A DNA stretch of 64,000 bases from Vicinamibacteria bacterium. Lineage in GTDB: Bacteria > Acidobacteriota > Vicinamibacteria > Marinacidobacterales > Marinacidobacteraceae. Position 1 is the stretch's first letter. Each line of letters opens with the position of its first letter. The notes beneath the pieces were generated by a model. It was given only the letters and a program-made list of their open reading frames with translations. It made no database searches and was not told the origin of the DNA. The DNA lies in NCBI GenBank assembly GCA_963668695.2, contig CAXXLQ010000004.1, positions 1,696,001 to 1,760,000 of the forward strand. Direction: 5' to 3'. This document shows positions 1,461 to 51,550 of this stretch, one piece after another. The position numbers were made by a program, and so were the translations under genes.

Positions 1461-1641
1461 TTAGTAGCCCGTGGGTAAAGTGACGTGAGCACCGAGGCTG
1501 GCCAGTCTCCCGGTGGGGGCGAGGCGCGCGGCTGACAAGGCGCGCGAGGGAGGAGCCCCCACCGGGAGAACTGGCCCGTGTGTATTTCGACCGAAGCGCA
1601 ACGATGAGCGACGCGAAGCGACGCGGTGAACAGCCGGTGGT

Positions 1642-1795
1642 GGATCGCCGGCCGAGCCCCCACCGGGAGAACTGGGCCGCGTGGGTTTCGTCACCGGTTG
1701 TTTGGCCGGGATGGATCGCCAGCCGAGCCCCCACCGGGAGAACTGGGCCGCGTGGGTTTCGTCACCGGCTGTTTGGCCGGGATGCATCGCCGGCC
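1642..1795. repeat. Two tandem ~71-bp units plus a partial third
   Basis: GGATCGCC(G/A)GCCGAGCCCCCACCGGGAGAACTGGGCCGCGTGGGTTTCGTCACCGG.TGTTTGGCCGGGAT at 1642 and 1713. Confidence 0.85.
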
Positions 1796-2247
1796 GCTTC
1801 CGGAGCGGGGCGTGAGCACCGCGGAGACCCCGGAGCGAGACGGAAGGGGGACGGGGACACCCGACTCCCATCCCTCTTGGCTCGGGCTTCCGGAGCGGGG
1901 CGTAAGCACCGTGGAGACCCCGGAGCGGAAGGGACCGGGGGCGGGGGTCACCCGACCCCCATCCCTCTTGGCTCGGGCTTCCGGAGCGGGGCGTGAGCAC
2001 CGCGGAGACCCCGGAGCGGAAGGGACGGGGGGCGGGGTCACCCGACCCCCATCCCTTCTGGCTCGGGCTTCCGGAGCGGGGCGTGAGCACCGCGGAGACC
2101 CCGGAGCGGAAGGGACGGGGGGCGGGGTCACCCGACCACCATCCCTTCTGGCTCGGGCTTCCGGAGCGGGGCGTGAGCACCGCGGAGACCCCGGAGCGGA
2201 AGGGACGGGGGGCGGGGTCACCCGACCACCATCCCTTCTGGCTCGGG
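1796..2247. repeat. Five tandem ~90-bp GC-rich units
   Basis: Unit GCTTCCGGAGCGGGGCGTGAGCACCGCGGAGACCCCGGAGCGGAAGGGACGGGGGGCGGGGTCACCCGACC.CCATCCCTTCTGGCTCGG starts at 1796, 1886, 1977, 2067 and 2157. Later copies are near-identical, the first is more diverged. Confidence 0.95.
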
Positions 2248-2331
2248 AATGCCGCGTGACTTTACGCACGGGGTGCTGGGCCGGGCGTCAGGTCCCGGGA
2301 CGTTCGACCGGACGGCTCTTCATGCGGGCTG

Positions 2332-3636
2332 CTAGGCCGACTTCGGCAAGCCGTTCTTCGCGACGTGCTCGTACACCTCGCAGAAGTAGTCGAGTTCGGC
2401 CATGGTCGTGTAGAGGTTCGGCGTGATCCGGAGTCCCTGAAACTCCTCGTGCATGATCGGGGTCACGATGATGTGGTGCTTGTCCCAGAAGTAGTCCCGG
2501 AGCCGAGGGGCCTCGATCGTTTTCAGGTTGATGTTGCCGATGGCGCAACTCATCTTCGGGTCGCGCGAGGTGTGCAGTTCGGTGTCCGGAAGCGCGGACA
2601 GGCGGTCGGCCCAGGTGTTTTTCAAGTAGCGGAGCCGCGCCTCCTTGTTCTTCGCGCCCACCGTGTTGTGGAAGGTGATCGCCTCGCCGATCGCCACGAA
2701 GTTGGCGGCGGGATGGGTGCCGATCTCCTCGTACTTGCGGATGTCGGCGTCCATGCGCTCGGGGGCCGGCATCATGGGCCAGATCTTCGGGATCTTGTCC
2801 TTCTTCACGTAGAGCATCCCGGTTCCCTTGGGGGCCAGGAGCCACTTGTGGAGGCTCGTGCCGAAGTAGTCGCAGCCGATGTCCTCGTGTTTGAAATCGA
2901 ACTGGGCGAAGGAGTGGGCGCCGTCCACCATGACCTCGACGCCCCGCTCGCGGGCGACGTCGCAGACCGCCTTCACCGGCAGGATCTGCCCGGTGAGGTT
3001 GATCTGATGGGACATCAGGATGATTTTCGTCCGGTCGGTGATGGCGTTCCTGAACCCTTCCACGACCTCTTCATCGGTCTCTGCCGGAGTCGGGATCTGG
3101 ATGAACTTGAGGTCGATCCCCTCGCGGCGTATCCGTTGGCGGATGGTGGTGAGCATCCGCCCATAGTCCTGGGTGGTGGTGAGGATCTCGTCGCCGGATT
3201 GGAGATCCATGCCAAGTAGCAGGATTTCCATGGCTTCCGAGGTGTTCCGGACGAGCGCGACCTCCTCGGGGTCACATCCGAAGACCGTCGCGAGCCGCTG
3301 CCGCACGTTCTCCTTGCGGGGCTCCAGGATCTCCCACATCGTGTACACGGGGGCTTCCTCCTGCTGCCAGGTGTAGCGGACGAACGCTTCGGTGACCATC
3401 CGGGGTGACGGGCAGACCCCGCCGTTGTTCAGGTTGATGATCGAGCGCGAAACGCTGAACGCCTGCTGGACTTCGCTCCAGTAGTTCTCGTCGCCGGCCA
3501 GATCGTCAGCGCTCCGCCCGGACGCTCGCTGCGCCGCCGCTTCGACGTTGTGGATCGTCTCCGGTCCAAAAAGCGTGGTGACGAACGCAGCGCTGCCCGC
3601 TTCGCCCATCGAACTGAGAAACCGCCTGCGTCGCAT
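2332..3636 (-). CDS. Class V PLP aminotransferase (isopenicillin N epimerase/cysteine desulfurase-like) with Tat-like leader
   Basis: LNNGGVCPSP, VDGAHSF, TSLHKWLLAPKGTG (PLP lysine); N-terminus MRRRRFL. Confidence 0.88.
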   Translation of the reverse strand: MRRRRFLSSMGEAGSAAFVTTLFGPETIHNVEAAAQRASGRSADDLAGDENYWSEVQQAFSVSRSIINLNNGGVCPSPRMVTEAFVRYTWQQEEAPVYTMWEILEPRKENVRQRLATVFGCDPEEVALVRNTSEAMEILLLGMDLQSGDEILTTTQDYGRMLTTIRQRIRREGIDLKFIQIPTPAETDEEVVEGFRNAITDRTKIILMSHQINLTGQILPVKAVCDVARERGVEVMVDGAHSFAQFDFKHEDIGCDYFGTSLHKWLLAPKGTGMLYVKKDKIPKIWPMMPAPERMDADIRKYEEIGTHPAANFVAIGEAITFHNTVGAKNKEARLRYLKNTWADRLSALPDTELHTSRDPKMSCAIGNINLKTIEAPRLRDYFWDKHHIIVTPIMHEEFQGLRITPNLYTTMAELDYFCEVYEHVAKNGLPKSA

Positions 3637-3801
3637 CGCTTTTCCACTCCTTAAAGGGAACTCGGGGCCGCAGCCGAGTCGTCGGACGGAGCCCTGAATT
3701 CAGGGCAATGTACCACTTCGGTCGGCGCCGGAAGCCTGGCTCGTGTCCTGGCTGGAAGGCCCCCGCCGGTGGGCCGAATCCGCATTCACTACCATCCCGC
3801 C

Positions 3802-5328
3802 ATGCTCGACACTCTCTCCGATCTGCTGCGCCGGATACCGCCGATCTTCGATTCGACCGTGGGTCACCTCGTGATCGCGCTGGGCGTCCTGGTGGCCGCC
3901 TTCGGTTTCGCGCTGGCGGTGGTCATCCTGCTCCGCCGGGCTCTGTTCCGCCTGGGTCTGAGGGAAAAGGTGGCCGCGCGGGTCGCCGGCGGGGTGCGCC
4001 TCGTGCTGGGGCCGGAACGGGCCGCCCGCCAGGATGTGGATGCCCTCGCGGGCCGGATCGTTTTCTGGGGTCTCCTGGTTCTGGTCGGCGCCGGAGTGGC
4101 CTCGGTGGTGGATTTGTCGAGCATCGGCGGCATCGGTGGAACGATGCTCGGGCGGATCATGGCGATGGCGGCCCAGTTGGGGCGGGCTCTCGTGGTGTTC
4201 CTCGCGGCCTGGTTCCTGGCCGCGGTGCTCCGCCGCGCCGTGCGGGTGGCGCTCGAGGCGGCCGGCGTGGACGAGCGGCTCGATCGGGGGGACGACCGGC
4301 CGCCAGGACGGATCTCGCATGCGGTCCCCGAGGTCGTCTACTGGATCGTGCTGCTGCTGTTCCTTCCACCGATCCTGAAGGCGCTCGAACTCGAGGGCGT
4401 GCTGCTTCCGATCGAGACGATCTTGAATCAGGTGATCACCTTCCTTCCGAACGTCCTCGGCGCGATCATCATCTTTCTCGTCGGCTGGTTCATCGCCCGG
4501 ATTGCGAAGGCGCTGGTGACGAATCTGCTCGCCGCGGTGGGACTCGACAGCGCCGCGGAAAGGCTCGGCCTGCGGCGGGTTCTGGGTTCGAGGACGCCTT
4601 CCGCGCTCCTCGGCGGGATCGCCTATCTGTTGGTGCTCTTCCCCGTGATCCTGACCGGTCTCGACCGCCTGAGCCTCGACGTGATCACCGGACCGGCGAG
4701 CGAGATGCTGGGTCGGGTCTTTGCCGCCCTGCCGCTCCTCCTGGTGGCGGTGGCGCTGCTCGTGACGGCCTACGTGGTGGGTTGGATCATCTCGAACCTG
4801 GCGCGCGATCTCCTGCGGGAAGCCGGTTTCGACCACGTGCTCACCCGGATCGGGCTGACCAGCACGACAACCGGCGACGAGTTCGCGGCTTCGAACGTCG
4901 TGCGGGTGGTGGTGCTGGCTCTCATCATGCTGTTTGCGAGCATCGAGGCGGCGAGCCTCGTCGGGTTCGAGAACGCGGCGGACCTCCTGGCGCTGCTGCT
5001 CCAGTTCGCCGGCCACTTCCTGCTGGGAGTGGTGTTCCTGGGATTCGGGGTCTTCCTCGCCAACCTCTCGGCGCGCGGGATTCTGGCGGGTTCGATCCCG
5101 CAGGCGCGGCTGCTGGCGCTCGCGGCGCGGGTAGGCATCCTCCTGTTCACCACCGCGGTCGGGCTAAGCCTGATGGGAATCGCCAACGAGATCATCGAGC
5201 TGGCCTTCGGCATCGTGCTCGGAGCGATCGCGGTGTCTTTCGCGGTGGCCTTCGGTCTTGGCGGCCGCGACGCCGCGGCCAGGCAGATTGAGCGCTGGCA
5301 ATCGCGGATGTCCGACGAAGATCGCTGA
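3802..5328 (+). CDS. Multi-TM-helix mechanosensitive-channel-related (CmpX-like) membrane protein
   Basis: Repeated hydrophobic helices with FLPNVLGAIIIFLVGWFIARI and C-terminal AVAFGLGGRDAA. Confidence 0.78.
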   Translation: MLDTLSDLLRRIPPIFDSTVGHLVIALGVLVAAFGFALAVVILLRRALFRLGLREKVAARVAGGVRLVLGPERAARQDVDALAGRIVFWGLLVLVGAGVASVVDLSSIGGIGGTMLGRIMAMAAQLGRALVVFLAAWFLAAVLRRAVRVALEAAGVDERLDRGDDRPPGRISHAVPEVVYWIVLLLFLPPILKALELEGVLLPIETILNQVITFLPNVLGAIIIFLVGWFIARIAKALVTNLLAAVGLDSAAERLGLRRVLGSRTPSALLGGIAYLLVLFPVILTGLDRLSLDVITGPASEMLGRVFAALPLLLVAVALLVTAYVVGWIISNLARDLLREAGFDHVLTRIGLTSTTTGDEFAASNVVRVVVLALIMLFASIEAASLVGFENAADLLALLLQFAGHFLLGVVFLGFGVFLANLSARGILAGSIPQARLLALAARVGILLFTTAVGLSLMGIANEIIELAFGIVLGAIAVSFAVAFGLGGRDAAARQIERWQSRMSDEDR

Positions 5329-5338
5329 TCGGCCGGGC

Positions 5339-7399
5339 ATGGAAGGCAAGCTCGCCGGCTATTCCTGGCAGGGGCGCGCGATCCGCCGCGCCGCGGTCAT
5401 CGGCTCGGGTCAGATCGGGCCGGATATCGCCCTCCACCTGGTCAAGACGCTCGCGCCGCACGGGGTGGAGACCGCGGTCCTGGACATTTCGGAGGCGGCG
5501 CTCGAGTCCGGCCGGCGGAAGATGTTCGGGAAGATCGAGAAGGGTCGCCAGTCGGGGGCGTTCAAGGACGCCCAGGCCGAGCGGATGCGGTCAGCGGTCG
5601 ATTTCACGAGCGACTACGGCCGGCTCGCCGGCGTGGACCTGGTCATCGAGGCGGCTTCCGAGGATCTCGCGATCAAACGGCGCATCTTCGCCTCGGTCGA
5701 GGAGCTCGCGGCCCCCGGGGCGGTCCTCCTGTCGAATTCGTCGCACATCGAGCCGTCCCGCATCTTTGCCGAGCTATCCCGGCCGGGACGCGCCGCCGTC
5801 GCCCACTACTTCTTCCCGGCGGAGCGGAACCCGGTCGTCGAGATCGTTGCCGCCGAGTCCGCCCGGGGGCTCGTCCCCTGGCTCCTCGGTTTTTACGAGG
5901 AGATCGGCAAGGTGCCGGTCGCGGTCGCGAGCCGTTTCGGCCACGCCCTGAACCCCATCTTCGAAGGGCTCTTTCTGGCGGCCGCACTCGCGGTGGAGGA
6001 AGGGCTCGGAACCTCGAAGGAGGTGGACGACGTCGCCCGCCGGGCGCTCCGACTCGGGATCGGGCCCTTCACCGCCATGAACCTCACCGGCGGGAACCCG
6101 ATAGGCCACGAGGGGTTCGCCGCGATGCACGAGCGCCTCCACCCCTGGTTCCGGGTTCCCCGCCTCCTCGACGAAGCGATGGCCGAGGGCGGGCCCACCG
6201 GCCGGGTCTGGGAGGTGCCGGCGCGGGGCGAGAAAGTGCCCGTTCCGGAGCAGCGGAAGCGGGCCATCGAGGAACGGATTACCGCCGCCTACCTCGGACT
6301 CGCGGCCTGGACCGCCGCCGAAGGGGCGATCTCGGTTCCCGATCTGGACATGTCCTGCCACCTCGCGCTGGCGGTCGTCCACCCGTTCGGCCTCATGCGG
6401 AAGCTGGGGGCGGCACGGGTTTCGGACCTTCTCGCGTCCTACCGGGAACGGGAGCCCGATTTCTTCGACCCCGCGGACTTCGCTTCGCAGCTTCCCGATT
6501 GGACGTCCCGCCCGGTGCCCCGGGTGGGGAGGAGCGACGTTCCGGCAGGGACCGGCGCGGTGGCGGTGCTGACCATCCGCCGGCCGGAAGTGCTGGGGGC
6601 GCTCGACGAGGAGGTCTTCGCCGAGTTCGATGCGCGTCTCGACGAGGTGGCGGCGGATGACGCTGTCCTCGGAGTCGTCTTCACCGGGTTCGGAGTCAAG
6701 GCCTTTGTGTCGGGAGCCGACATTCGCATGCTGGCCCGCATCGGGTCACCCGGCGACGGGGAGCGGCTCTCGCGGGCCTCCCACCGGATCCTTGACCGGA
6801 TCGCGGGGTTCCAGAAGCCGGTGGTCTGCGCGCTGAACGGGATGGCCGTCGGGGGCGGGAACGAGCTGGCCATGGCCTGCCACGCCCGGATCGCGCGCGA
6901 GGGACTCCGGGTTCTCGCCAGCCAGCCCGAGCCGAACATCGGCATCATTCCGGGCGCCGGGGGGACGCAGCGGCTGCCCCGTCTCATCGGGGTGGAGGCG
7001 GCGTGGGAGATCCTCCGGACCGGGCGGGCCGTTTCGGCGAAGGAGGCGCTCGCGCTGGGCCTCGTCAGCGAGCTGGTCCCGGGGGAGCGGCTGCGGGAGC
7101 GGGCGGTTCAGGTGGTCGCCGAGGCCGCGTCGGACGGCGGGTCCCTGCCGGAGATGCCGGACGGCCCCATCCCCGTTCCGGACGAGTTGCCCGAAGTGGA
7201 CATCGGCCATCTTTCCCGGCCCGTGGACGCCCTCATCCAGAGGGCCGTCCGGGAGGGGGCCGCCACGGATCTCGCTTCCGGCCTGGACCTCGAAATCCGC
7301 CTCTTCGGCGAGGGCTGCGCCCTTGAGGACATGGGGATCGGGGTCCGGAACTTCATCGAGAACGGTCCGCGGACCAGAGCAGCGTTCGCCCACCGCTGA
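5339..7399 (+). CDS. Fused 3-hydroxyacyl-CoA dehydrogenase / enoyl-CoA hydratase
   Basis: N-terminal VIGSGQIG, VIEAASEDLAIK, SNSSH and HYFFPAERN; C-terminal crotonase FVSGADI, GGGNELAMACH and PGAGGTQRLPRLIG. Confidence 0.9.
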   Translation: MEGKLAGYSWQGRAIRRAAVIGSGQIGPDIALHLVKTLAPHGVETAVLDISEAALESGRRKMFGKIEKGRQSGAFKDAQAERMRSAVDFTSDYGRLAGVDLVIEAASEDLAIKRRIFASVEELAAPGAVLLSNSSHIEPSRIFAELSRPGRAAVAHYFFPAERNPVVEIVAAESARGLVPWLLGFYEEIGKVPVAVASRFGHALNPIFEGLFLAAALAVEEGLGTSKEVDDVARRALRLGIGPFTAMNLTGGNPIGHEGFAAMHERLHPWFRVPRLLDEAMAEGGPTGRVWEVPARGEKVPVPEQRKRAIEERITAAYLGLAAWTAAEGAISVPDLDMSCHLALAVVHPFGLMRKLGAARVSDLLASYREREPDFFDPADFASQLPDWTSRPVPRVGRSDVPAGTGAVAVLTIRRPEVLGALDEEVFAEFDARLDEVAADDAVLGVVFTGFGVKAFVSGADIRMLARIGSPGDGERLSRASHRILDRIAGFQKPVVCALNGMAVGGGNELAMACHARIAREGLRVLASQPEPNIGIIPGAGGTQRLPRLIGVEAAWEILRTGRAVSAKEALALGLVSELVPGERLRERAVQVVAEAASDGGSLPEMPDGPIPVPDELPEVDIGHLSRPVDALIQRAVREGAATDLASGLDLEIRLFGEGCALEDMGIGVRNFIENGPRTRAAFAHR

Positions 7400-7481
7400 T
7401 CGCGCGGACACCGAGCGGCGAGAACTGCGCCGCCATCCACCGGGGGGCGCCGGCGAAGAAACCCCGCCGCGGCGCCCGCGA

Positions 7482-8423
7482 CTACTTGCCCAGGCTGTCC
7501 CAGATGTCGTTCATGCCGAGTTGGTAAGCCATCTGCTGGAGCGAATCGGCGGTCTTCCTTTCGAGGGGGATTCCGCGGGTACGGTGCTGTTCTTCGACGG
7601 CGGCGGCCTCCTGGCCCGGATAGTCGATCCGGGCCCGGCGCAGTGGGGCGAGCCGCTCCACCATCCGGTTCCGGAAGCCGGCCCAGGGGGCGAAGGCGCG
7701 GATCCGAAAGGCGAGGAAGAAGTGACCGGTGCCGCGGTGGGTGGGGTCGGGGTGGGGTTCCGCGGCGAGTTCCTCGGGGAGCGCCGCCCCCCCGAGCGTC
7801 ATGAGGAACTCGAGCGCGAGGCCGAGGGCGACAGCGCGCTCATCGCCCTCCGGGGGAAGGTTCAGGCTCAGGACCATTGGAGCGGCGGTTTCTGCGGTGG
7901 GGACCGCGATTCCGAGCGCCACCGGGTCGCTGGCGGGTAGCCGCTCCCCGTCGCCGGGGCGGACGGGTTCGCTCGCCATCGCGATTCCCGCCATCTGGTG
8001 AGAGAGGGCGATCGCCGCGAAATATCCCGGCGACCCCATCCGGTTGCTCCGGCGCACGGCGGTGCTGCCGATGCCGTGGCGGTTCGCACCGCTGATGGCC
8101 TCGATCATCGCGCGCCAGGCGATCGCCGGGCCGGGCCCGTTGTCCCCGTCGAGCACCGCGGTCCCCCCCGAGGAGGAGACAACTTGCATGTCCGGGGCCG
8201 GATTCACATGCCGCGTGGAGAGCCCGGTGACGAGTCCCGGCAGCCACGCCACCCCGTCCTGGTCTTCGCCCATCAGATTGGCGCCCACCATGGCGTCCGC
8301 GGTGTGGGAGGCCAGCTCGGGCGCGAGCCGGACCCGTTTCAGCGTCTCCCGGATAAAGAAATGGAGCTGTCCGTGCCGGACTCGTAGCGGGGAGCCGTCT
8401 CCGGTCACCAAAGAAGAAGTCAT
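7482..8423 (-). CDS. Ldh_2 (malate/lactate/ureidoglycolate dehydrogenase) family protein, divergent
   Basis: From MTSSLV: VLDGDNGPG, HGIGSTAVRRSNRMG, GHFFLAF, YPGQEA...RGIPL; ATGA overlap with the upstream gene. Confidence 0.72.
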   Translation of the reverse strand: MTSSLVTGDGSPLRVRHGQLHFFIRETLKRVRLAPELASHTADAMVGANLMGEDQDGVAWLPGLVTGLSTRHVNPAPDMQVVSSSGGTAVLDGDNGPGPAIAWRAMIEAISGANRHGIGSTAVRRSNRMGSPGYFAAIALSHQMAGIAMASEPVRPGDGERLPASDPVALGIAVPTAETAAPMVLSLNLPPEGDERAVALGLALEFLMTLGGAALPEELAAEPHPDPTHRGTGHFFLAFRIRAFAPWAGFRNRMVERLAPLRRARIDYPGQEAAAVEEQHRTRGIPLERKTADSLQQMAYQLGMNDIWDSLGK

Positions 8424-9718
8424 GAGAACAGATCCCGGAGCGTGCCGCTCCAACCCCAGAAGAGAACCACCACGATGGCCGCGGGGATCACCCAGCGGAT
8501 CCAGAAGAGCCAGAGGCCGCCCGGAGGCTTCGTCGAGCCCCGGCCCGCCTCGGCGAGCGCCCGGCCCCGCGAGACGAAGAACCCTAGACCGATCAGGGTG
8601 AGCGCCGAACCGATCGGCTGCATCGTGGAGCCCCAGATGAGGTCGCTCCACCCCAGGTAGTCGGCGCTCACCATGGACGGTAGCGCGACCGGGATCTGGA
8701 GGGCCACCACCGCCGCGATCACCTGCGGCCGGCTCCAGCCGGTCCAGGGGACGACCGAGTTCACGATCACCTCGAGCGCGGCGAGCGCCGACAGGAAGGC
8801 GGCGAGGAAGAGTGCGAGGAAGAACACCGGACCGAAGAACTCGCCGCCCGGCATGGCGGCGAAGACCCGGGGCAGGGTGAAGAACACGAGCGGCGGACCC
8901 GAGGCCGGCTCCACCCCGAGGGCGAAGGCGGCCGGGAGCACGGCGAGCCCACCCAGGATGGCGGCGCCCGTGTCGCCCAAGATCGTCGAGGCGGCGAGGC
9001 GGCGCAGGTTGGCGGTCGAGGGCAGATAGCTGCCGTAGGCGAGGAAGAAGGTGCCTCCGAGCGAGAGGCTGAAGAACGCCTGCCCGAGCGCCGCCAGGAA
9101 GGTCTCGGCGTTGACCCGGTCGAAGTCGGGCCAGAGCAGGTAGCGGACGCCCTCGGAGGCGCCCGGAAGGGTGACGGAACGGACCGCCACGACGACGAGT
9201 CCGATCCCCACGAGCGGCATCGCGATTCGTGACAGCCGCTCGACGCCGCGCCGCACCCCGAAGGCCGCCACCAGCCCCATGGCCCCGAAGACCAGGACGG
9301 TGAGGCTGAGGTTGAGCCCCGTGATGCCGCCGAAGTTTTCGGCGTAGAACGCCTCGGGTTCGGGGACCACGCCGCCGAGTGCCGCATAAAAGAGGACCTG
9401 GGCCACCACCACCGTGTAGTAGGAGCAGGCCATGAACACGGTAAGGACGAGCAGGCCCCCCACGAAGCGGCCGCCGGGCATCCCGATCTTCGTGAAGGCG
9501 CCGCCCGGGCCGGCGCGGGTCAGGCGTCCGAGACTCCATTCGGCCATGAGCGCCGGAGCGCCGAGGAGGAGCACGAACGCGAGATAGATCGCGACGAACG
9601 CTCCGCCTCCGTACCGGCCCGCCAGGTAGGGAAACCGCCAGATGTTGGCAAGCCCCACCGCGACCCCGATGAGGGTCATCGCGGTCCCGAAACGGGTCCC
9701 GAAGCGTTCGTCGCTCAC
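8420..9718 (-). CDS. Sodium-dependent transporter, NSS/SNF family
   Basis: GVAVGLANIWRFPYLAGRYGGGAF signature; ALGQAFFSLSLG. Confidence 0.93.
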   Translation of the reverse strand: MSDERFGTRFGTAMTLIGVAVGLANIWRFPYLAGRYGGGAFVAIYLAFVLLLGAPALMAEWSLGRLTRAGPGGAFTKIGMPGGRFVGGLLVLTVFMACSYYTVVVAQVLFYAALGGVVPEPEAFYAENFGGITGLNLSLTVLVFGAMGLVAAFGVRRGVERLSRIAMPLVGIGLVVVAVRSVTLPGASEGVRYLLWPDFDRVNAETFLAALGQAFFSLSLGGTFFLAYGSYLPSTANLRRLAASTILGDTGAAILGGLAVLPAAFALGVEPASGPPLVFFTLPRVFAAMPGGEFFGPVFFLALFLAAFLSALAALEVIVNSVVPWTGWSRPQVIAAVVALQIPVALPSMVSADYLGWSDLIWGSTMQPIGSALTLIGLGFFVSRGRALAEAGRGSTKPPGGLWLFWIRWVIPAAIVVVLFWGWSGTLRDLFS

Positions 9719-9725
9719 GCGATCC

Positions 9726-10454
9726 TTACCTTGCGCGCAGGTAGTCGCGGGCGTTCAGCGCCTGGCCCGTGGTAGCGGCCGATTCGGGCGACGCGAGAAC
9801 CACGAAGACTTCGGCGATCTCTTCCGGAGTGGGCAGGGTCAGGGGGTCCTCCGCGGGGTAGGCGGCGGCGCGCATCGGGGTGCGGGTCGCTCCCGGATTG
9901 ACGCTGTTCACCTGGACTCCGGTGTCTTTGAGCTCCGCGGCGAGGGTCTGGGTGAACCCCTCGAGGCCGAACTTGGACACCGCGTAGGGTCCCCAGTTGG
10001 GCTTGCCGATGCGGCCGACCGTCGAGCTGACGTTGATGATCGAGGCGGACTCCCGCTCCAGGAAAGCCGGGAGCAGGGGCTTCGTGACGTAGAGGAGGCT
10101 CGCGGTGTTGATCCGGAGGGTGTCCGCCCAGACCTTCGGGTCCTGCTCGATGATCGGCGCCCGCACTCCCAGGATCGAGGCGTTGTTCACCAGCACCGAG
10201 AGGTCGGGGAAGCGGACGAGCGCCGCGTGCGCCATGGCCTCCGCTGAATCCGCGTCCCCGACGTCGGAGGCAGCGAAGCCGGTTCGTCCGGGGTGCAGAG
10301 CTTCCAGTTCGTCCGCGGTTTCCCGGAGTCGCTCCTCCCCGCGCGCAGTGAGGAACACCCGCGCTCCCTCCTGGAGGAAGATGCGCGCGAGCCCACGCCC
10401 GATCCCGGACGAAGAGCCGGTGATCAGCGCCGCGACGCCTTCGAGCCGTCTCAT
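9726..10454 (-). CDS. SDR oxidoreductase (YciK-like)
   Basis: TGSSSGIG, NNAS, YAVSK, NPGATRTPMRAAAYPAED. Confidence 0.9.
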   Translation of the reverse strand: MRRLEGVAALITGSSSGIGRGLARIFLQEGARVFLTARGEERLRETADELEALHPGRTGFAASDVGDADSAEAMAHAALVRFPDLSVLVNNASILGVRAPIIEQDPKVWADTLRINTASLLYVTKPLLPAFLERESASIINVSSTVGRIGKPNWGPYAVSKFGLEGFTQTLAAELKDTGVQVNSVNPGATRTPMRAAAYPAEDPLTLPTPEEIAEVFVVLASPESAATTGQALNARDYLRAR

Positions 10455-11289: not shown

Positions 11290-11393
11290 GGTCTGGCTGG
11301 GTTCGGCGGTGCTTTCGGCGGGGTTTTTGGCAGCGCTCCGGCGCTCTATCCAGCGCGGGAAGCGGCGCGATGCGCCATGACTATACTCGGGCC

Positions 11394-12233: not shown

Positions 12234-12265
12234 GTTCCTGAACGGGGTTACCAAGGAGGGTTTCG

Positions 12266-15915: not shown

Positions 15916-16120
15916 CTAGCAGCCTGTGAACAAGGTCGCGCGGCGTTCGAGCGGCGATTCATCCCGGCTGAAACGCGCCGCTTCGCGTCGCTCATCGTTG
16001 CGCTTCGGTCGAAATACGCTCGGGCCAGTTCTCCCGGTGGGGGCTCCTCCCTCGCGCGCCTTGTCAGCCGGGCGCCTCGCCACTCTCGGCGCTCACGCCA
16101 CTTTGCCCACAGGCTGCTAG
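15916..16120. mobile_element. Non-autonomous MITE with terminal inverted repeats and CTAG at both ends
   Basis: CTAGCAGCCTGTG...CACAGGCTGCTAG; internal sequence shared with 33710-33932 and 1461-1630. Confidence 0.85.
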
Positions 16121-24948: not shown

Positions 24949-24970
24949 CTCAGGATGTCGCCGCCGGTAG

Positions 24971-25030
24971 GGGAACGCCGCCAGTCCTCCCGGTGGGGAC
25001 CTTCAGACCGGCATCGTCCGCCGCCGGCGG
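24971..25030 (+). repeat. REP-like palindrome interrupted by the 19-bp module
   Basis: GGGAACGCCG-CCAGTCCTCCCGGTGGGGAC-CTTCAGACCGGCATCG. Confidence 0.7.
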
Positions 25031-25092
25031 GCCAAACCGCGTAGTGCCCACAGCCCTCGAGGTGCCGACGCAAACTCGCAAAGGAGTTCGCT

Positions 25093-33709: not shown

Positions 33710-33932
33710 TTAACAGCCTGTGGCAAAACCCACCCGGCCCAGTTCTCCCGGTGGGGGCTCGACGGGCGATCCATCCCGGCTGAACCGCCCCGCTTCGCGG
33801 TGCTCTGCGTTGCGCTTCGGTCGAAATACACTCGGGCCAGTTCTCCCGGTGGGGGCTCCTCCCTTGCGCGCCTTGTCAGCCCGGCGCCTCGCCCGTCTCG
33901 GCGCTCACGTGGGTTTCACCACAGGCTGTTAA
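33710..33932. mobile_element. Non-autonomous MITE with TTAA at both ends
   Basis: TTAACAGCCTGTGG...CCACAGGCTGTTAA; the right TTAA provides the stop codon of the XRE gene. Confidence 0.87.
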
Positions 33933-36654: not shown

Positions 36655-36887
36655 GGTGGCCCTCACGCGGGCGGGGCGCAGCGCCATCGGCGCTGGTTTC
36701 GCGCTCCCGCGCGGTGCCGGGCCCCACCGGGAGAACTGCCCAGAGGTCGGCGTTCCAAGCCGTCCCCGCGCCTTTTCCTGGTCGGCGGTCCGCGGTTTCG
36801 CTGGCCTGCGGCCAGCGGTGCCGGTCTGAGAAGACCGGCGTTCCCTGCCCGGCGCGCCATCTGGACTGGCCGGGGTTTCCGCACCAC
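36655..36887 (-). repeat. Composite REP-like element (copy of 54470-54670), one hairpin interrupted by the 19-bp module
   Basis: Shares GCTGGTTTCGCGCTCCCGCGCG, CCAAGCCGTCCCCGCG and GAAGACCGGCGTTCCCTG with 54525-54670. Confidence 0.8.
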
Positions 36888-39723: not shown

Positions 39724-39735
39724 GGGCGTCGCGAG

Positions 39736-44540: not shown

Positions 44541-44728
44541 GTCCTTCCTCCCGCTCAGGCGTTCCCGAGCCTTGGAACTCTGGTGTTCTGATTGATAGTG
44601 CGGAGCCTACCGCCTGCCCGCTGCCGAGCATTCGGCGCTGTGGCCGGGAGCGCCCGGATCACGCCGGCCCGCGGACTCCACACACCTGAAAGTTGCAGGT
44701 GGTCATCCGCGAGGAGGCGGTGAGGAAG

Positions 44729-45481
44729 ATGCCGTCAATGCCCGCCTGGTCGCGAAGACGGTTCCTCGAGAGCGGATCGGCGGCGGCTGCGATCGCCGCG
44801 GTCTGGGGCTGCACGCCGGACGAGCGGACGCGGGCGGACGGATCCAGGCCGCTGCTGGACGAGAGCCGGACCAGCCCGCCGCCGCCGCTCACCGGCCCTC
44901 GCCGCTCGCTGGCGGCGCCGGGCCCGATGATCCCGCCCTGCCCGGCGATCCTGCTCACCGTGAACGGCCGACCCGGCGACCCTGACGAGATCTCGGTGCT
45001 ATGGACGTTCGTCGTGAACGGCGACCCGCCCCAGATCGGGGTGAGCGCGGGCTTCGAGCATCAAGCGAGGGAACTCCTGGAGCTCCACGACGAGTTCGTG
45101 CTGAACGTCCCGCTTGCCTCGATGATCGAGGCGTTCGACACCGTCGATATGAACTCGGGAAGCGTTGCCGACAAGTTCGAGCTCTCAGGTCTGACACGAG
45201 GCGCGGCGACCGTGGTCGATGCGCCCACCGTGGAGGAGTCCCCGATCCATTGCGAGTGCCGCATCATCGAATCACTTGCGGTACCGCCCGTGCGAAAGCT
45301 CTTCATCGCGGAGGTCGTGGCGACAACCGCCATCGAGGGCGCAGTCGACGACGGCGGTCGCCTGATCGTGCCCAATGTGGACTTCTTCGGAATGACTGCC
45401 GGGAGTGGCGAGCACTACACGATGGGTCGCCGGGTCGGCAACATCGGGATGACGGTCGGGCGGAGCGACATCAAGTACTGA
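44729..45481 (+). CDS. Flavin reductase-like protein with Tat-like leader
   Basis: SRRRFLE; EFVLNVP, DKFELSGLT, APTVEESPIHCECRI, LFIAEVV. Confidence 0.85.
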   Translation: MPSMPAWSRRRFLESGSAAAAIAAVWGCTPDERTRADGSRPLLDESRTSPPPPLTGPRRSLAAPGPMIPPCPAILLTVNGRPGDPDEISVLWTFVVNGDPPQIGVSAGFEHQARELLELHDEFVLNVPLASMIEAFDTVDMNSGSVADKFELSGLTRGAATVVDAPTVEESPIHCECRIIESLAVPPVRKLFIAEVVATTAIEGAVDDGGRLIVPNVDFFGMTAGSGEHYTMGRRVGNIGMTVGRSDIKY

Positions 45482-45589
45482 CGGCCCACCCGGTCGGGGG
45501 CGCGACGGGCTTGCCGTTCGTACCGCCGCCGCCGCCGCCGCCCGCCGCGGCGATCAGCAGGGCGAGGATCGCCCGGCGCATCCGATTCA
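45471..45589 (-). pseudogene. N-terminal remnant of another zincin-lipoprotein paralogue
   Basis: VNRMRRAILALLIAAAGGGGGGGTNGKPVAPPT matches the leaders at 50035, 47794 and 42094; lipobox Cys lost. Confidence 0.7.
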
Positions 45590-45610
45590 CCGCCAGCTCC
45601 CGCTCGTCTG

Positions 45611-47794
45611 CTAGCGGCGCGGAAGCTCGGTCGTAAGCCGGCTTCGGCCGCCTGTGATGCGAGCCCAGTATTTGAGCATACCGTCGAGGAACAGCGCGTG
45701 GAATCTCAACTGGTCCTGATCGGGCGCCTGCCCCGGCTCCAGCAGGTAGACGAAGCCAATGTTGAACACCTTCTGCGACCGCTCGGGCGGCGGGTCTCGC
45801 GGCCCCAGCGCGGCCAAGACCTGTTCCATCGTTACGATTTCCTTCTCGGCCGTGTGGGGTCCGCGCCAACCATCCCCCGTCTCCTGGAGGTTCCGCAGGA
45901 AGAACGTGTCCGGCACTTCGTCTGCGGTCGCCAAGCCCGACAGGTAGAGATCGAGCCAGGAGAGTCCTTCTTCCGACTCCGTCTCGGACACGACGCGGGT
46001 GAACGTCCCGTCCGCGTTCTCGCGCCAGAAATCCCCGCCCATGATGGACCCGGTCCTGGCGAAAGCAGCGGGGGTGTGCAGCCCCGGAAGCCAGTGGCCT
46101 CCTTCCCCCCAAAGCGGCTCGATCTCTCCATCACGAACGTAGGACGCGCTAGCGGTCCAGGTGTGGGTGAACTCGTGGGCCAAATGCGATGTCCCCGCGG
46201 AACTGGGCGCAAGTCCGCCAGAGTCGTCCAGGACGGCCACGAAATCGGATTTCGTCCAGATAGTGAAATTCCACTGGCCGCGCAGCCGGGTTCCGCAGGG
46301 CGACTTCCTCTCGTCCAGGCGCTCGGGGAATCCGATTCCCCGGATGGGCACGTTCCCGGGGTAGTAGCCCCACCAGGAGCCGGAGAACTGAATGTCGTAG
46401 CGGAACTGGCTGTGGAGGAATATGGCATCGAACTCGTCCCCCAGAGTCTCGATGACGCGGCAGCCGAGGGGAACGAGGTAATCCTTTACCCCGGTGTGGT
46501 GGAACACCTCGCGCGCCGCCGCCGAGGACCCCGGCTCCGACAGGTCGGTTGGCGCAGACGCTATTACCTCAGGGAAGCTGATAACCGCCGAGTGTTCTCC
46601 ATATGGACCCCAAGATCCGGTTACCTGATTCCTTGACCGAGCGAAAGCGCGGACAGACGTGGAGTGACCTGAGAACTCACCTGGATCGAACAGCAGGCCG
46701 ATCCGGTTGTCATCGACATCGCGGTCGTACGCTGCTTCGGCGTCCCACGCGGCCGTTCGGCTGCCGTCCGGCTGCAGGGCGACTCCAGCGAAAAAATCCC
46801 AGTCGTCGATCGCCACGATGTAGAAGATCTCCTGATTTGGGATGGGACGGATGGGACCTCTTGTCGTGAACTCGACCAACACGCGATCGGGCTCGGCGGT
46901 CGCGTAGAGCGCGGTTTCCACAAGATCAAGGTGCGCGGGAACGGAGCCGTCCACAGAGTCGGGGATGCTCCCGAGCAGGCCGGTCTTTACAGCTCCCGGG
47001 AACAGGCCGACGATGCCGTCGCGGATCGCTTCGTCGGAATCGTCTGGCTCAGGCGCGTAGTGGAACGCGATGCCGCCGTCGGCGTGCAGGGTCATCTGGA
47101 ACCGGGTTTTCTCCTGCGGCGGGACTCCGTGGACGTGAAAGGCGGCGTCCGTGGTGATCCAGGTGACGACCACTCGATCGGGTCGGCGGGAGACGTGCTG
47201 CGTGTTGCCGAACTGCTCGGCGTCGTACGTGCCCCACCCGCCGAGCCGAGGCTTGTACAGCGCGGCAATGACCGGCGGCGCCCCCAGGTGTTCGGCGATC
47301 TCCGCCATCGTCCCCCACCTGTCGGGGCCAAGCTGCGAAAAGGGATACGGCTCACCGAACGTGACCAGTCCGTAGCGACTGACGAAGAAGGACTCCCACT
47401 CCCGGCCCGCGAAGTCGAACTGGAAGACGATCTCGGCGTTGTCATCGACCGGGTCGCCCAGGTCCTCGTCCCAGTCGAGCGCCCGCACCTCGCGCGAGTA
47501 GCCGCCGCCGGCCCGAGTGAACATCAGGGTGCGGCCGGCCAGGTCCAGCGGGTTCGCGGAGACGACGTCCTCAGACATCAACTCCATGAGGATCTGGTTC
47601 TCCGAAGTGACCGAGATCCCGCGGCCGACCGGAGTGATCTCGATGGGCGGATCCGGAGGCGGGGCCGGTTCAGGCGCCGGCGGTGGTGTGGGCGTCGGCG
47701 CGGTCGGGGGCGCCACGGGTGTGCCGTCCGGGCCCCCGCCGCAGCCGGCCCCGACGATGAGGAGGGCGGCGAGCGCCCAGACAGTTCGACTCAT
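45611..47794 (-). CDS. Large lipoprotein with HExxH zincin motif (paralogue B)
   Basis: GAGC lipobox, Pro linker, AHEFTHTW, SIMGG, LDLYLSGL. Confidence 0.82.
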   Translation of the reverse strand: MSRTVWALAALLIVGAGCGGGPDGTPVAPPTAPTPTPPPAPEPAPPPDPPIEITPVGRGISVTSENQILMELMSEDVVSANPLDLAGRTLMFTRAGGGYSREVRALDWDEDLGDPVDDNAEIVFQFDFAGREWESFFVSRYGLVTFGEPYPFSQLGPDRWGTMAEIAEHLGAPPVIAALYKPRLGGWGTYDAEQFGNTQHVSRRPDRVVVTWITTDAAFHVHGVPPQEKTRFQMTLHADGGIAFHYAPEPDDSDEAIRDGIVGLFPGAVKTGLLGSIPDSVDGSVPAHLDLVETALYATAEPDRVLVEFTTRGPIRPIPNQEIFYIVAIDDWDFFAGVALQPDGSRTAAWDAEAAYDRDVDDNRIGLLFDPGEFSGHSTSVRAFARSRNQVTGSWGPYGEHSAVISFPEVIASAPTDLSEPGSSAAAREVFHHTGVKDYLVPLGCRVIETLGDEFDAIFLHSQFRYDIQFSGSWWGYYPGNVPIRGIGFPERLDERKSPCGTRLRGQWNFTIWTKSDFVAVLDDSGGLAPSSAGTSHLAHEFTHTWTASASYVRDGEIEPLWGEGGHWLPGLHTPAAFARTGSIMGGDFWRENADGTFTRVVSETESEEGLSWLDLYLSGLATADEVPDTFFLRNLQETGDGWRGPHTAEKEIVTMEQVLAALGPRDPPPERSQKVFNIGFVYLLEPGQAPDQDQLRFHALFLDGMLKYWARITGGRSRLTTELPRR

Positions 47795-47815
47795 CGGCCC
47801 TTTCCCGCTCGACTT

Positions 47816-50035
47816 CTAGCGGCCCGGAATCTCGTTCGAGAGCTGGCCCCGCCCGCCGGTGACGTGGCGCCAGTGCTCCAACGCCCGGTCGCGGTAGCGC
47901 ACGAGCTCGCGCAGCAGCTCGGGGTCGGGCTCCTGCCCGGGCAGCAGGAAGTACACGAACCCGATGTTGAACACCTTGGGCGCCCGCTCCGGCGGCGGGT
48001 TCCGCGGCCCTATCGCGGCGACGATCTGTTCCATGGTCACGATCTCCTTCTTCTCCGCCGTGTAGGGCCCGTCCCACCGTTCACCCGCCTGCTTGACGTT
48101 GTGCAGCACGAACATGTCCGGCACTTCGTCGGGGGTTGCCAGGCCCATCAGGTAAAGGTCGAGCCAGGAGAAGCCGCCCCCTTTGGTCGACCAGCCGCGC
48201 GTGGGAGTGAACGTCCCGTCGCTGTTCTCGCGCCAGTAGGACCCGCCCATGACCGAGCCGTTCTCGGTTCCCCACCAGGGAAACGGCGCGGGCGCATGCA
48301 ACTCGAACGCCCAGTGGCCACCCCCTCCCGCAGTCATCAACCTCCGCTCGCCATCCTTCATGTATTGCGCGGCGGCGAGCCAGGTATGGCCCATCTCGTG
48401 GGCGAAAACCGTCAGGCCCGGATCGTAGGGAGTCTGGCCGGGGAACTCCGCGTGGCTCTCGTCCACGACGGTACTGGCCTTCATCCAGACGGGATACCCC
48501 CAACTGTTCTTCAGCCGGGTCTCGCACGGGGTCGCGTAGTCCCCCCCGGGCGGCCCGATGCCCGTAACCTCGGCCTGGATGTTCCTGTGATAAAAGCCCG
48601 CAAACCCATGCGCAGGACCGGTCGACTGCTGGTCCACGCGGAACTCGCTGTTGAAGGCGAACAAGTCGAAATGGTCGCCCAGGACCTCGATGATCCGGCA
48701 GGAGACGTGGCCGACGCCCTCCCTGCCGTCGCGGATCATCGGGTACCGGAACACCTCGTACTGTGCGGCGGAAGGTCGGGGATCCGGATGCGACAGGTCG
48801 ATCGGCGCGGAATCTGCCGCCTCCGGGAAGCTGATGACCGCCGAGTGTTCTCCATAACGTGGACCCCAAGATCCGGTTACCTGATTCCTTGACCGAGCGA
48901 CAGCGCGGACAGACGTGGAGTGACCCGAGAACTCGCCTGAATCGAACAGCAGGCCGATCCGGTTGTCATCGACATCGCGGTCGTACGCTGCTTCGGCGTC
49001 CCACCGGGCCGTTCGGCTGCCGTCCGGCTGCAGGGCGACTCCAGCGAGAAAATCCCAGTCGTCGATCACCACCATGTAGAAGATCTCCTGGTTCGGGATC
49101 GGACGGATGGGGCCTCTTGTCGTGAACTCGACCAACACGCGATCGGGTTCGGCGGTTGCGTACAGCGCGGTTTTCACAAGATCGAGATGCGCGGGAACGG
49201 AGCCGTCCACCGGATCGGGGATGCTACCGAGCAGGCCGGTCTTGACGACTCCCGGGAGCAGGCCGACGATGCCGTCGCCGAACGCCTCGTCGGGATCCTG
49301 GGGCTCGGGCCCGTAGTTGAGGGCGATCCGTCCATCGGAGTGCAGAACGATCTGGAAGTCGAAGGTTTCCTTCGGCTCCCTTCCGTACACGAGGAACTCC
49401 TGGTCGACGACGAAGAAGGTGACGATCATGCGATCGGGCAGGTTGGAGACGTACACGTTGCCGCCCAGGTACGGCTTGTACAACGCACTGATCGTCGGCG
49501 CGATCACGAAGAGGTCGAACATCTGAGGCATCGTGCCGAACCGCTTCGGCCAGTACGATCACTCGGAATCGGCTCGCCGAAAGAGATCAACCCCGGCCGG
49601 GTGTAGAAGAAGGAGTCCCACTCCCGGCCCGCGAAGGGGAACCGGAAGTGCTCCAGCTCGACCTCGGCAGGCCCGCGCATTCGCTCGGCGTCGTCCGCCT
49701 CCTCCTCCCAGTCGAGCGCCCGCACCTCGCGCGAGTAGCCGCCGCGGCCGTCCGGAGTGAACATCAGGGTGCGGCCGGCCAGGTCCAGCGGGTTCGCGGG
49801 CGCCAGGTCCTCGGACATCAACTCCATGAGGATCTGGTTCTCCGTTGTGATCGAGATTCCGCGGCCTGACCGGAGTGATCTCGATGGGCGGATCCGGAGG
49901 CGGGGCCGGTTCAGGCGCCGGCGGTGGCGTGGGCGTCGGCGCGGTCGGGGGTGCGACGGGTGTGCCGTCCGGGCCACCGCCGCAGCCGGCCCCGACGATG
50001 AGCAGGGCGATGAAAGGCCAGGGCATCCGGTTCAC
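47816..50035 (-). CDS. Large zincin lipoprotein (paralogue C), frameshifted at ~49867 and ~49555
   Basis: Three ORF segments align colinearly with paralogue B; AHEMGHTW, SVMGG; one extra base at 49867 relative to B. Confidence 0.78.
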
Positions 50036-50223
50036 CTGCGCCGCCATTTGTGGGGAATGGGGCAGTTCTACCACACCCCACAGATATTGCGGGTGAGTCA
50101 GAACCGGAAACATGTAGTCCCCAAACGTATCCCGTTGATTTCGATGCTGCTAGCGCGGGGGTGGAGTCGTGAATCTACGGACGACTGACCAACTACCAAC
50201 CGCCACCACTCAATTCGGATCCC

Positions 50224-50492
50224 TCATTACCCCAGCAGATTGGGCAGGAGCAGGAGCACGCCCGGCAGGAACGCGATGATCAGCGTGAGCGCCAGCATGA
50301 CCGCCAGGTAGGCCGGAGCGGGCGGGCGACTTCCGCCGGCTCAACCCATCCCACCGAGCAGGCCACCAGGAGGCTCACCCCCACGGGTGGCAGGAACACG
50401 GAGATCCCCTGATTCGCCACGATGACGGCGCCGTAGCGCACCTCAGCATGCCGTCCGCCGACACGCCCGAGAATGGCGCTGAGCGGCAGGAA
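50224..50492 (-). pseudogene. Degenerate 3' remnant of dctM
   Basis: Matches ~51551-51865 (YGAVIVA.QGISVFLPPVGVSLLVACSVG...LPNLLG) with small indels and an internal deletion. Confidence 0.85.
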
Positions 50493-50573
50493 TGGCCTTC
50501 TCCCGAGTACTTGTTTCGGTTCGGATCTTGGGGCGTATGCGAGATCGAAACCCCGAAGGTTCCGATCTGACCT

Positions 50574-51001
50574 TCACTCCCTCCAGGGGTTTACGAGCGG
50601 GAGTTCCAGGTCCTGGAAGTCCTCCGTGTTCCGGGTAGCCAGAACCAGGTTGTGGCGCAGTGCGACCGCCGCGATCTGGGCATCCAGGGCTGGCCGCGCG
50701 GTCGCCCGGACTTGTCGGCGGAGCCCATGATTTCGCCGCAGATGACGGCGGCCCGATCATCGAACGCCAGGATGCGTCCGCCGAACTGACGGGTCAGGTC
50801 CCGAGTGATCCACTGCTGGTAGCGCAGGGATCGGGCCGGATCACCCACGCTCAGGGCTCCCCGGACCAATTCTCCGAGAGTCACCGCGGAAAGGAAGAGG
50901 TCTCTTGGCGTCCGCTCACGAAACCAGCTCAGTACCCGTGGCTCGGGCCGCGGCCGAACTGTCTCGCTGATGACGTTCGTGTCCAGGAGAAAGGCGCTCA
51001 C
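50574..51001 (-). CDS. vapC: VapC PIN toxin with a frameshift near 50692
   Basis: LLDTNVISE...SAVTLGEL; continues in another frame as [24 protein letters not shown]...LVNPW. Confidence 0.82.
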
Positions 51002-51318
51002 TCGAAATCGACCGGCCGTCCGAAAGAGCGGTCACGCTCGAGCTCAAGGTCCCCTTCGCGGAGCGGCGAAGCGAGAAGGAAGTCGACGAGTTCGACTCCG
51101 GTCGCTGCCGGAGCGCGCACGACCTCGGTTTCGAGCAGTTGCCGTAGTCCCGTGGCCCTCGCTCCCTCCTCGCGGAGCGTCTGAGCAAGCGAGCGCAGCA
51201 GGGGAGCGTCCCGCAGCGGAACCGAGATCTCAACGCGCGTGGTGCCGCGTGCCGTTGCCCGGAGGCGGTGACGAGCGACGCGAGGTGTCGACTTGCGGTC
51301 TTCGGAGTCGTTGGTCAT
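50998..51318 (-). CDS. Putative antitoxin coupled to VapC
   Basis: RVEISVP...C-terminal LVDFLLASPL...LELERDR; ATGA overlap with the toxin. Confidence 0.72.
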   Translation of the reverse strand: MTNDSEDRKSTPRVARHRLRATARGTTRVEISVPLRDAPLLRSLAQTLREEGARATGLRQLLETEVVRAPAATGVELVDFLLASPLREGDLELERDRSFGRPVDFE

Positions 51319-51389
51319 GTTTCCGGGAACGTTGCCGGAAGAATGGGTCATGCGAGGTGCGACGACAAGGGGCGTTCCATCGCGGGCCA

Positions 51390-51550
51390 TTGTCGGCGGT
51401 CGCGTGCCTGGGCGCGCTTCACGCAGATTGGCGATGGGAGTTTCGCCCCGCTTCGCGGGTCGATGCTGGCCAGTTCTCCCGGTGGGGGCCTGAAGACCGG
51501 CGTTCCCTGCGCAGCGCGCCATTCGGACTGTTGGCGGTCCCTTTCCCCCT
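51390..51550 (-). repeat. REP-like element downstream of dctM, interrupted by the 19-bp module
   Basis: GATGCTGGC-CAGTTCTCCCGGTGGGGGC-CTGAAGACCGGCGTTCCC. Confidence 0.78.

Follow-up and report, generated by a model that had tools for sequence, protein, structure and literature searches.

In-place gain and loss of an 18-nucleotide block at orthologous intergenic repeats in a family of Vicinamibacteria

Here we report on a very short DNA block, hereafter the module, that is dispersed through the repeats of a Vicinamibacteria bacterium and was first noticed, from the letters alone, in a stretch of 64,000 nt (the window; G000:C4:1696001-1760000). The genome, G000, is an assembly of 4.10 Mb with 67.5% G+C, four contigs (C1-C4) and a completeness of 91.7%. 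The module is built around a 16-mer core, CAGTTCTCCCGGTGGG, and most of its copies lie in two repeat families, one resembling miniature inverted-repeat transposable elements (MITEs) and the other the hairpins of repetitive extragenic palindromic (REP) sequences. Comparison of orthologous repeats shows precise, in-place gain and loss of the block, the change being limited to the block and 1-4 junction bases. Moreover, the module is a separate unit added secondarily, not an original part of the MITE-like and REP-like repeats, and its sequence is kept near-uniform across a bacterial family.

A search of G000 by substitutions only, of the kind proposed with the original prediction, gave 1,659 matches to the 16-mer at up to two mismatches, a count slightly inflated by near-duplicate contigs and contig ends in the assembly. 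They comprise 1,325 exact copies, 271 with one mismatch and 63 with two, are shared equally between the strands (840 on + and 819 on -), and include 172 copies of a single variant, CAGTCC. On C4 the numbers of matches at zero, one, two and three mismatches were 1,269, 262, 62 and 149, as compared with 0, 0, 2-13 and 40-127 for reversed or shuffled control words, so that a tail of decayed copies is absent. The core is preceded by G-S-C and followed by G-G-C, and the constant unit is an 18-mer (C, core, G) rather than a 16-mer between GGCs. Tandem runs are exact head-to-tail 18-mers, with 1,108, 129, 2, 1 and 1 runs of one to five units on C4. When 30-nt anchors were taken on either side of every copy, 5,663 anchor-pair sites were obtained in G000, duplicated contigs included. 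Filled intervals measured 22 nt (1,733 sites) or 23 nt (358), and empty ones 4 nt (1,646, among them GCGC 270, GTAT 242 and GCGT 233) or 3 nt (348, among them GGT 129, GGC 122 and GGG 58). These sizes correspond to a net gain of 18 nt at most sites, with 2-4 unrelated bases replaced, and of 19 nt where GGY becomes GGC-core-GGC. The duplicated GGC originally reported around the core is therefore found at some sites, and does not hold as a consistent rule because junctions differ by site.

The copies fall into 123-128 context clusters, comprising the two abundant repeat families and rarer contexts; 89 clusters have two members or fewer on C4, many of them diverged hairpins. The MITE-like family, with ends AACAGCCKGTGG..., has about six fixed module sites (a, b, c, d, e and a rare one), and the REP-like hairpin, GCCGGTC-nnnn-GACCGGC, carries the module at several positions. 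The rarer contexts number about 100 genome-wide. The major sites are essentially biallelic: site e, for example, is filled in 222 and empty in 175 of 424 cases, with a handful of intermediates, and the filled fraction per site is intermediate, about 17-56%. The module is frequently found in inverted pairs. It was also said to be absent from genes, which is roughly true, since 99 of 1,531 C4 copies lie inside crude open reading frame (ORF) calls that cover 56% of C4, an approximate figure given this gene map, and the 80 of these 99 that were listed are all at most 251 nt from an ORF end. A DNA uptake sequence spread through coding DNA is rejected on the same counts. Module orientation shows no skew relative to the replichores along C4 in any context class, which rules out a polar motif of the Chi or KOPS (FtsK orienting polar sequence) kind.

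The evidence for gain and loss in place comes from orthologous repeats. Genomes G000 and G001 are syntenic, at an identity of about 95%. Within their long alignments 19 modules are in common, and four of the 26 gaps of at least 8 nt are module-sized indels; re-alignment at 41 breaks gave 11 shared cases, 7 clean filled/empty cases, 82 in which the repeat is absent from the other genome and 30 that are unclear. A tabulation of empty orthologous sites, also proposed at the outset, was made on four genomes, G000 and 400 kb each of G001, G004 and G008, which overlaps the G000/G001 data and in which a clean empty site required at least 70% flank identity. Among the 181 module blocks compared, 43 were common to at least two genomes and 23 gave clean filled/empty contrasts, with gaps of 18-19 nt; for the remaining blocks the host repeat was absent or unalignable.

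Distances in unique anchor regions, 0.049 for G000-G001, 0.087-0.094 to G004 and 0.111-0.122 to G008, yield the tree (((G000,G001),G004),G008), on which single changes can be read. Site c of cluster 42 is filled in G000 and G001 and empty in G004 and G008, and a rare site in cluster 21 is filled in G000 and empty in G004 and G008; both read as gains. Site a of cluster 42 is empty in G000 alone, which reads as a loss. In cluster 3, an orthologous MITE carries the module in different tandem units of two genomes, the unit-specific flanks being identical. Furthermore, recent events are seen in near-duplicate regions of G000 (60 pairs, 793,309 aligned columns), which share 92 modules and differ by three module-related indels: a doublet versus a singlet in copies 99.5% identical, a 15-nt deletion inside a module, and a clean 19-nt indel in a hairpin with flanks GGCC/GGCC.

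The 16-mer was searched at up to one mismatch in 41 related genomes, with the reversed word as control, and was found in 29 of them, although repeat counts are too low in fragmented assemblies. All 15 other genomes of the genus are positive, with 10 to 799 copies each, as are other genera of the family (267 copies in G018 and 72 in G019). Two sister families gave single matches, one in each of 6 of 16 genomes, the reversed control giving 0-1 per genome. A scan of a species-representative collection returned at least 101 stretches with the 16-mer; among the matches listed, the multi-copy records bear the titles Candidatus Marinacidobacterium, Vicinamibacteria, Candidatus Poriferihabitaceae or Acidobacteria, and the remaining single matches lack GGC flanks. 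In four actinobacterial records (L003, L011, L013 and L053) the 16-mer lies within one near-identical conserved stretch, in frame (...QFSRWG...) and without GGC flanks; these are chance matches, unrelated to the module. An assembly, adapter or sequencing artefact, against which the original prediction had warned, has nothing in its favour and is scarcely conceivable, as the block occurs in 29 of 41 related assemblies, in the public records of the collection scan and at orthologous positions in different genomes.

The host repeats have a different distribution. At up to one mismatch, the module has 1,596 copies in G000, 20 in G010, of the same genus, and one in G020, a complete genome of a sister genus. 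Counts of the MITE core are 654 in G000, 311 in G001, 444 in G004, 408 in G008, 108 in G010 and 55 in G020, and a related core is present in other families with no module at all, for example 103 times in G032. The 16 G020 MITE copies that were read all share one architecture, and every site in them is empty. Counts of intact REP-like hairpins are 559 in G010, 200 in G005, 197 in G013, 73 in G000 and 32 in G004. Since MITE cores and hairpins abound in module-poor genomes, the host repeats are older than the module and independent of it. The earlier view of an independently inserted unit is thus borne out as far as secondary addition is concerned, by the module-free host repeats, the module-only differences between orthologs and the roughly 128 contexts. 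In another genus further copies lie within the MITE core or nested in another module, and a second 'dialect' (CGGTTC...TAGG) is abundant there. A search with degenerate patterns, which has a high background, recovered this second dialect in G018 and no dialect in G020 (five exact matches, one being the module); in G010 it gave 173 matches versus 59 for the control, and this genome may hold diverged dialects. Low-copy genomes read for a 'home gene' beside the module showed repeat contexts only.

These results bear on a reading by inheritance and loss, in which the ancestral MITE and REP-like repeats carried the module at all sites and every empty allele is a deletion. The loss inferred at site a of cluster 42 and the partial deletions that exist inside modules are in line with it. 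It is nevertheless very improbable in view of the module-free G020 MITEs and the module-free related cores of other families, and outgroup polarity yields gains. Moreover, the empty alleles hold GT, TAT and, at site b, a T/C change, none of which a single deletion of the filled allele could produce, and they keep their local stems intact. A single ancestral position with no independent insertions, the outcome that would have undone the original prediction, is likewise contradicted by the module-free hosts and the polarized gains.

Junction bases are constant within a site and differ between sites: at site b GCGC is opposed to GCC-M-GGT (M being the module), at site c ATAC is replaced, and site d has ...GGG. 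Orthologous toggles change the junction bases along with the block, for example GCGC-CC versus GCC-M-GGT-CC at site b. The share of the CAGTCC variant also depends on the site: it accounts for 83 of the 139 modules at the second unit of site b, for 25 of 107 and 21 of 75 of those at site a and for 8 of 39 of those in the main hairpin class, whereas site c has it in 2 of 308 modules and site e in about 0 of 322. Site-specific junctions and site-specific variant frequencies together point to copying from same-site templates. In the G000/G001 toggles, flanks 6-25 nt away differ at 4 of 376 positions, a figure biased low by the filter of at least 70% flank identity. Module state is weakly linked to flanking variants, and the 645 MITE centres include every one of the 12 combinations of states for sites a, b and c. 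Weakly linked flank variants, near-identical toggle flanks and the full set of combinations indicate that the copied tract is tiny.

The module also evolves more slowly than its surroundings in comparisons limited to orthologs of which one or both have the exact sequence. Between G000 and G001 orthologs it differs at 4 of 400 positions (1.0%) and the flanks at 128 of 1,645 (7.8%); between G000 and G004 the values are 2 of 192 and 50 of 761. The G000/G008 orthologs show no module-flank difference (10 of 128 versus 42 of 556), most of the ten coming from one 11-nt gap in cluster 58 that we read as an alignment artefact.

Our favoured reading, held tentatively and at a little less than even confidence, is one of templated copying, in which very short patches pass from one repeat copy to another and rare microhomology events seed new sites. 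The block would be copied by template switching, or by gene conversion of very short tract, at stalled GC-rich hairpins, the template being another copy of the repeat with or without the block at the same site. Such same-site templating would toggle each site between two discrete alleles, and rare illegitimate switches guided by GG, GGC or CCGG microhomology could seed the block at new positions or in other repeat families. Uniformity could arise from constant re-copying out of a pool of about 1,600 copies, from a protein reading the 16-mer, or from both.

Several points weigh against templated patching. The mechanism is deduced from end states, no event being directly observed, and tracts ending within a few bases of the block are shorter than is usual for RecA-type conversion. 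The context clusters on C4, about 128 in number and 89 of them with at most two members, require many homology-independent seedings. The 16-mer is identical across at least four genera, and this identity together with its slow evolution is explained no less well by a sequence-specific protein than by passive re-copying. Furthermore, filling of site c is target-dependent, the CA-GG variant of the site being empty in 51 cases and filled in 2, a pattern that an enzyme with a target preference could produce. The flank filter lowers the divergence seen around toggles, and the module/flank comparison is conditioned on the exact module.

An ultra-small non-autonomous mobile element, whose 16-mer would be read by a family-conserved enzyme and pasted into hairpin DNA rich in GG and CCGG, much as has been proposed for the small dispersed repeats of cyanobacteria, is possible, albeit doubtful in our view. 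The invariance of the 16-mer across genera, its slower change than the flanks in orthologs and the target dependence of site c all agree with it, as do the many unrelated contexts, the lineage-specific abundance in G000, G010 and G020 although host repeats are present in all three, and the further sites, module inside module and abundant CGGTTC...TAGG dialect of the other genus. However, there is no constant target duplication or junction, and site-specific junction bases and variant frequencies favour same-site templates. The enzyme search, described below, gave no candidate that fits among Y1/RAYT, RVT_1 and IS110, the only three families it covered. The stronger claim that the 18-mer is a 'nano-transposon', the smallest known mobile DNA, pasted into hairpins by a sequence-specific enzyme confined to this Vicinamibacteria family, seems to us unlikely; if true, the enzyme might be put to use for writing short inserts in a programmable way.

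It had been proposed that the 16-mer could be the scar or the joined ends of a larger element, with IS110/IS1111, HUH or reverse-transcriptase partners. No free half-sites were found in G000, where left-half 8-10-mers are no commoner than the full motif, and the ends of the IS110 element present here are unrelated; a scar or circle junction of IS110/IS1111 or IS200/605 type is thus rejected. The enzyme families searched were Y1/RAYT (REP-associated tyrosine transposase), RVT_1 and IS110. PF01797 (Y1/RAYT) had no match in G000, which is 91.7% complete, and was positive in 6 of 14 control genomes; PF00078 (RVT_1) had none in G000, G004 and G008 and one in G001, so that an HUH/RAYT or reverse-transcriptase partner is not supported, nor is an insert made by a retroelement, given the absence of PF00078 from these three module-rich genomes. 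IS110 does not fit either, its ends being unrelated and its copy number (one in G000 and 10-11 in G004, G008 and G014) showing no correlation with module number. The IS110-family element itself (about 1.8 kb, with an ORF of 428-442 aa; G000:C4:482399-482872 and flanks) sits inside the REP-like hairpin, near the loop, and its right flank is GTCCGGCGTTCC in the four copies compared. No autonomous MITE partner was found among 19 pairs of MITE ends 0.6-6 kb apart, of which four (1.0-1.5 kb) were read; these hold ordinary genes between two separate MITEs and no transposase-like ORF by eye, no family search being made.

The module could also be a selected functional motif, either a site bound by a host protein or a sequence akin to an uptake signal, whose filled alleles are favoured or preferentially transmitted by homologous recombination. 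This proposal, compatible with the other readings, is supported by family-wide conservation, thousands of copies equally distributed on both strands, the frequent inverted pairs and evolution slower than that of the flanks. Moreover, site c is filled in 36% of the MITEs in which sites a and b, on its left side, are empty, versus 61% otherwise, when an inverted partner is present. However, selection leaves the origin of an 18-nt block at a new site unexplained, the module is nearly absent from genes, unlike known uptake sequences, and site frequencies are intermediate, about 17-56%, rather than near fixation. On balance we find it quite improbable as an account of the module.

The closest known kind of sequence is the small dispersed repeats (SDRs) reportedly described in heterocyst-forming cyanobacteria (Elhai et al. 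2008, Genome Res 18:1484). Such cyanobacterial repeats are presented as 'some 20 bp long ... which might be mobile' (PMC3116915, PMC2884548). SDRs are reported to be 21-27 nt long, nested in MITEs and other repeats and recognized by comparison of filled and empty sites; they are not known to have an enzyme. The module resembles them in its dispersal, in its size of about 20 nt, in its nesting within other repeats and in the occurrence of filled as well as empty sites. It differs in coming from another phylum (Acidobacteriota), in probably having no sequence relation and in being slightly shorter at 18 nt. Site-specific junctions, orthologous toggling with polarity and evolution slower than that of the flanks are shown here for the module. 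No published match to the 16-mer, its complement or its two 13-letter parts was found in the searchable literature, and nothing on this element was found in the literature on repeats of Vicinamibacteria or sponges, on small dispersed repeats, or on MITEs and REPs in Acidobacteria. The original statement that this is not a described element thus stands for the sequence, which the searched literature lacks, and less so for the phenomenon, which resembles the cyanobacterial repeats.

Other systems share single features with the module. REP sequences, the bacterial interspersed mosaic elements (BIMEs) built of them, and the REPIN-RAYT system (REPINs being REP doublets that form hairpins) are likewise short, high-copy intergenic repeats of conserved sequence, with mosaics and frequent inverted pairs, but the module is non-palindromic (nothing beyond CCC..GGG), disrupts the REP-like stem and sits in hairpins rather than being one; the missing palindrome and the lack of PF01797 matches in G000 rule out REPIN/REP-RAYT. 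A MITE is ruled out as well, the ends being limited to 3 nt (GCC..GGC), the junctions varying by site and 2-4 target bases being replaced. Pneumococcal BOX elements and variable modules of the MIRU (mycobacterial interspersed repetitive unit) type are composite repeats that vary in internal module number, and tandem doublets of the 18-mer (129) are common here; in the present case, however, a single module is found at six or more positions and in either orientation, and it recurs in an unrelated repeat family. DNA uptake sequences (DUS) and uptake signal sequences (USS) are, like the module, short motifs conserved across a bacterial family, with about 10^3 copies on both strands and 'dialects'. 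Unlike them, the module arrives as an 18-nt block, not by point mutation, and is almost excluded from genes. Finally, some IS110/IS1111 elements target REP hairpins, and the IS110 element here lies in the same REP-like hairpin as the module, but its ends are unrelated, half-sites are missing, and its copies (1 in G000 versus 10-11 in G004 and G008) do not track the modules.

We rate the module as a known but poorly understood kind of sequence in a new phylum, with unusually good comparative material. At 18 bases and about 1,600 copies, it is among the smallest insert-like DNA units seen in bacteria. How very short dispersed repeats spread has had no explanation ever since they came to notice in cyanobacteria, and this lineage offers an unusually clean system, with a single 18-nt block, two discrete states per site, relatives that have the hosts and almost no block, and several complete genomes, the four compared in detail being about 5-12% divergent. 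An enzyme and replication-templated patching can be directly tested against each other by comparative genomics and long-read population data. The turnover of intergenic repeat mosaics can outpace point substitution, which matters for alignment, strain typing and the structure of 3' untranslated regions.

Within the window, nine matches to the 16-mer were found at up to two mismatches, against a chance expectation of 0.12, and none of 100 shuffles reached nine. A tenth copy was missed by the substitution-only search because it lacks one T. All ten copies listed in the original prediction, in both orientations, are present (Table 1), and its filled/empty pairs are as described, the MITE at 16 kb being empty at the equivalent of 33740 and having GGC where 1503 is filled. 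Likewise, the hairpins with modules at 24982, 36723 and 51471 carry them in different arms, and those at 53410, 54547 and 62395 are intact without one.

Table 1. Module copies and host repeats in the window
Feature	Position	Strand	Basis
Module copy with one T missing (CAGTCTCCCGGTGGG), flanks GGC/GGC, site a of MITE array	1503..1517	+	sequence read, site class
Exact module, MITE site c, replaces ATAC beside small stem-loop	1558..1573	-	motif search, sequence
Exact module, site e, within 71-nt tandem unit	1659..1674	-	motif search, sequence, tandem period
Exact module, site e, second 71-nt tandem unit	1730..1745	-	motif search, sequence, tandem period
Composite MITE-like host array holding the modules at 1503, 1558, 1659 and 1730	1463..1796	.	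sequence; 71-nt period over 1633-1796
MITE copy, site c alone filled (module 16026-16041, +); site a (GGC) and site e (GCGT) empty	15918..16120	.	sequence
MITE copy with modules at site e (33740-33755, +) and at site c (33838-33853, +), none at site a	33710..33932	.	sequence
CAGTCC-variant module, 5' arm of REP-like hairpin (about 24967-25038)	24982..24997	+	motif search, sequence
Exact module, other arm of REP-like hairpin (about 36691-36762)	36723..36738	-	motif search, sequence
Exact module, REP-like hairpin of opposite orientation (about 51436-51510), flanks GGC/GGCC	51471..51486	+	motif search, sequence
Empty REP-like hairpin, GCCGGTC tgga GGCCGGC	53410..53435	.	sequence
Empty REP-like hairpin, GCCGGTC ggag ACCGGC	54547..54573	.	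sequence
Empty REP-like hairpin, GCCGGTC ttca GACCGGC	62395..62423	.	sequence

Single-strand folds of the MITEs at 15918-16120 and 33710-33932 pair end to end (z = -3.4 and -2.9, respectively), and no module-specific structure was seen in these folds. A scan of the window against Rfam at the gathering threshold gave no match. Contig sets from four short-read sequencing runs break at repeats, for example at 16089-16091 and 33933; these sets are uninformative on module presence or absence and on transcription, and their depth in repeat bins is the sum over all copies.

As for the assembly, contigs C1, C2 and C3 and the segment C4:9,354-148,038 (versus C4:3.76-3.90 Mb) are near-duplicates, at 90-99.6% identity, of other C4 regions, hence the slight inflation of genome-wide counts. 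These small contigs and C4 ends probably represent strain variants or haplotypes left uncollapsed, not plasmids, which would fit the 9.3% 'contamination' figure; a plasmid collection queried with a piece of contig C1 returned two short, unrelated matches only.

Some further observations concern the MITEs and their surroundings. The two MITEs at 33710-33932 and 15918-16120 have ends flanked by TTAA/CTAG (TTAACAGCC...GGCTGTTAA and CTAGCAGCC...GGCTGCTAG). At cluster 40 (G000:C4, about 1,638,951), a whole MITE is present at one site in G000 and in the outgroup G008 and cleanly absent from G001 and G004, a pattern that suggests either that the MITE was excised precisely or that one TAG site was hit by insertion more than once. 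A MITE-like element with different ends (CTAAGGGTCCGGGCAAGAATAA...), found in G027, G035 and G037 (L199-L205), shares the internal core GAGGCGCCCGKCTGGCAAGGCGCG ... CAGCCAGRCGGGATG with the window MITE; families of the order thus have this core in common, and it may be functional or bind a transposase. At G000:C4:311990, C4:793877 and C1:136846 the module ends in ...GGTGGA and is followed by a shared 32-nt string (CTCTCCTGGAGAATGCAAGGAGGAAGGGAGGG) and then by a MITE end; this string may be another small module. Lastly, a separate tandem array at 1796-2247 of the window, in which a 90-nt unit is repeated five times (95% matches), directly abuts the MITE array and contains no 18-nt module.

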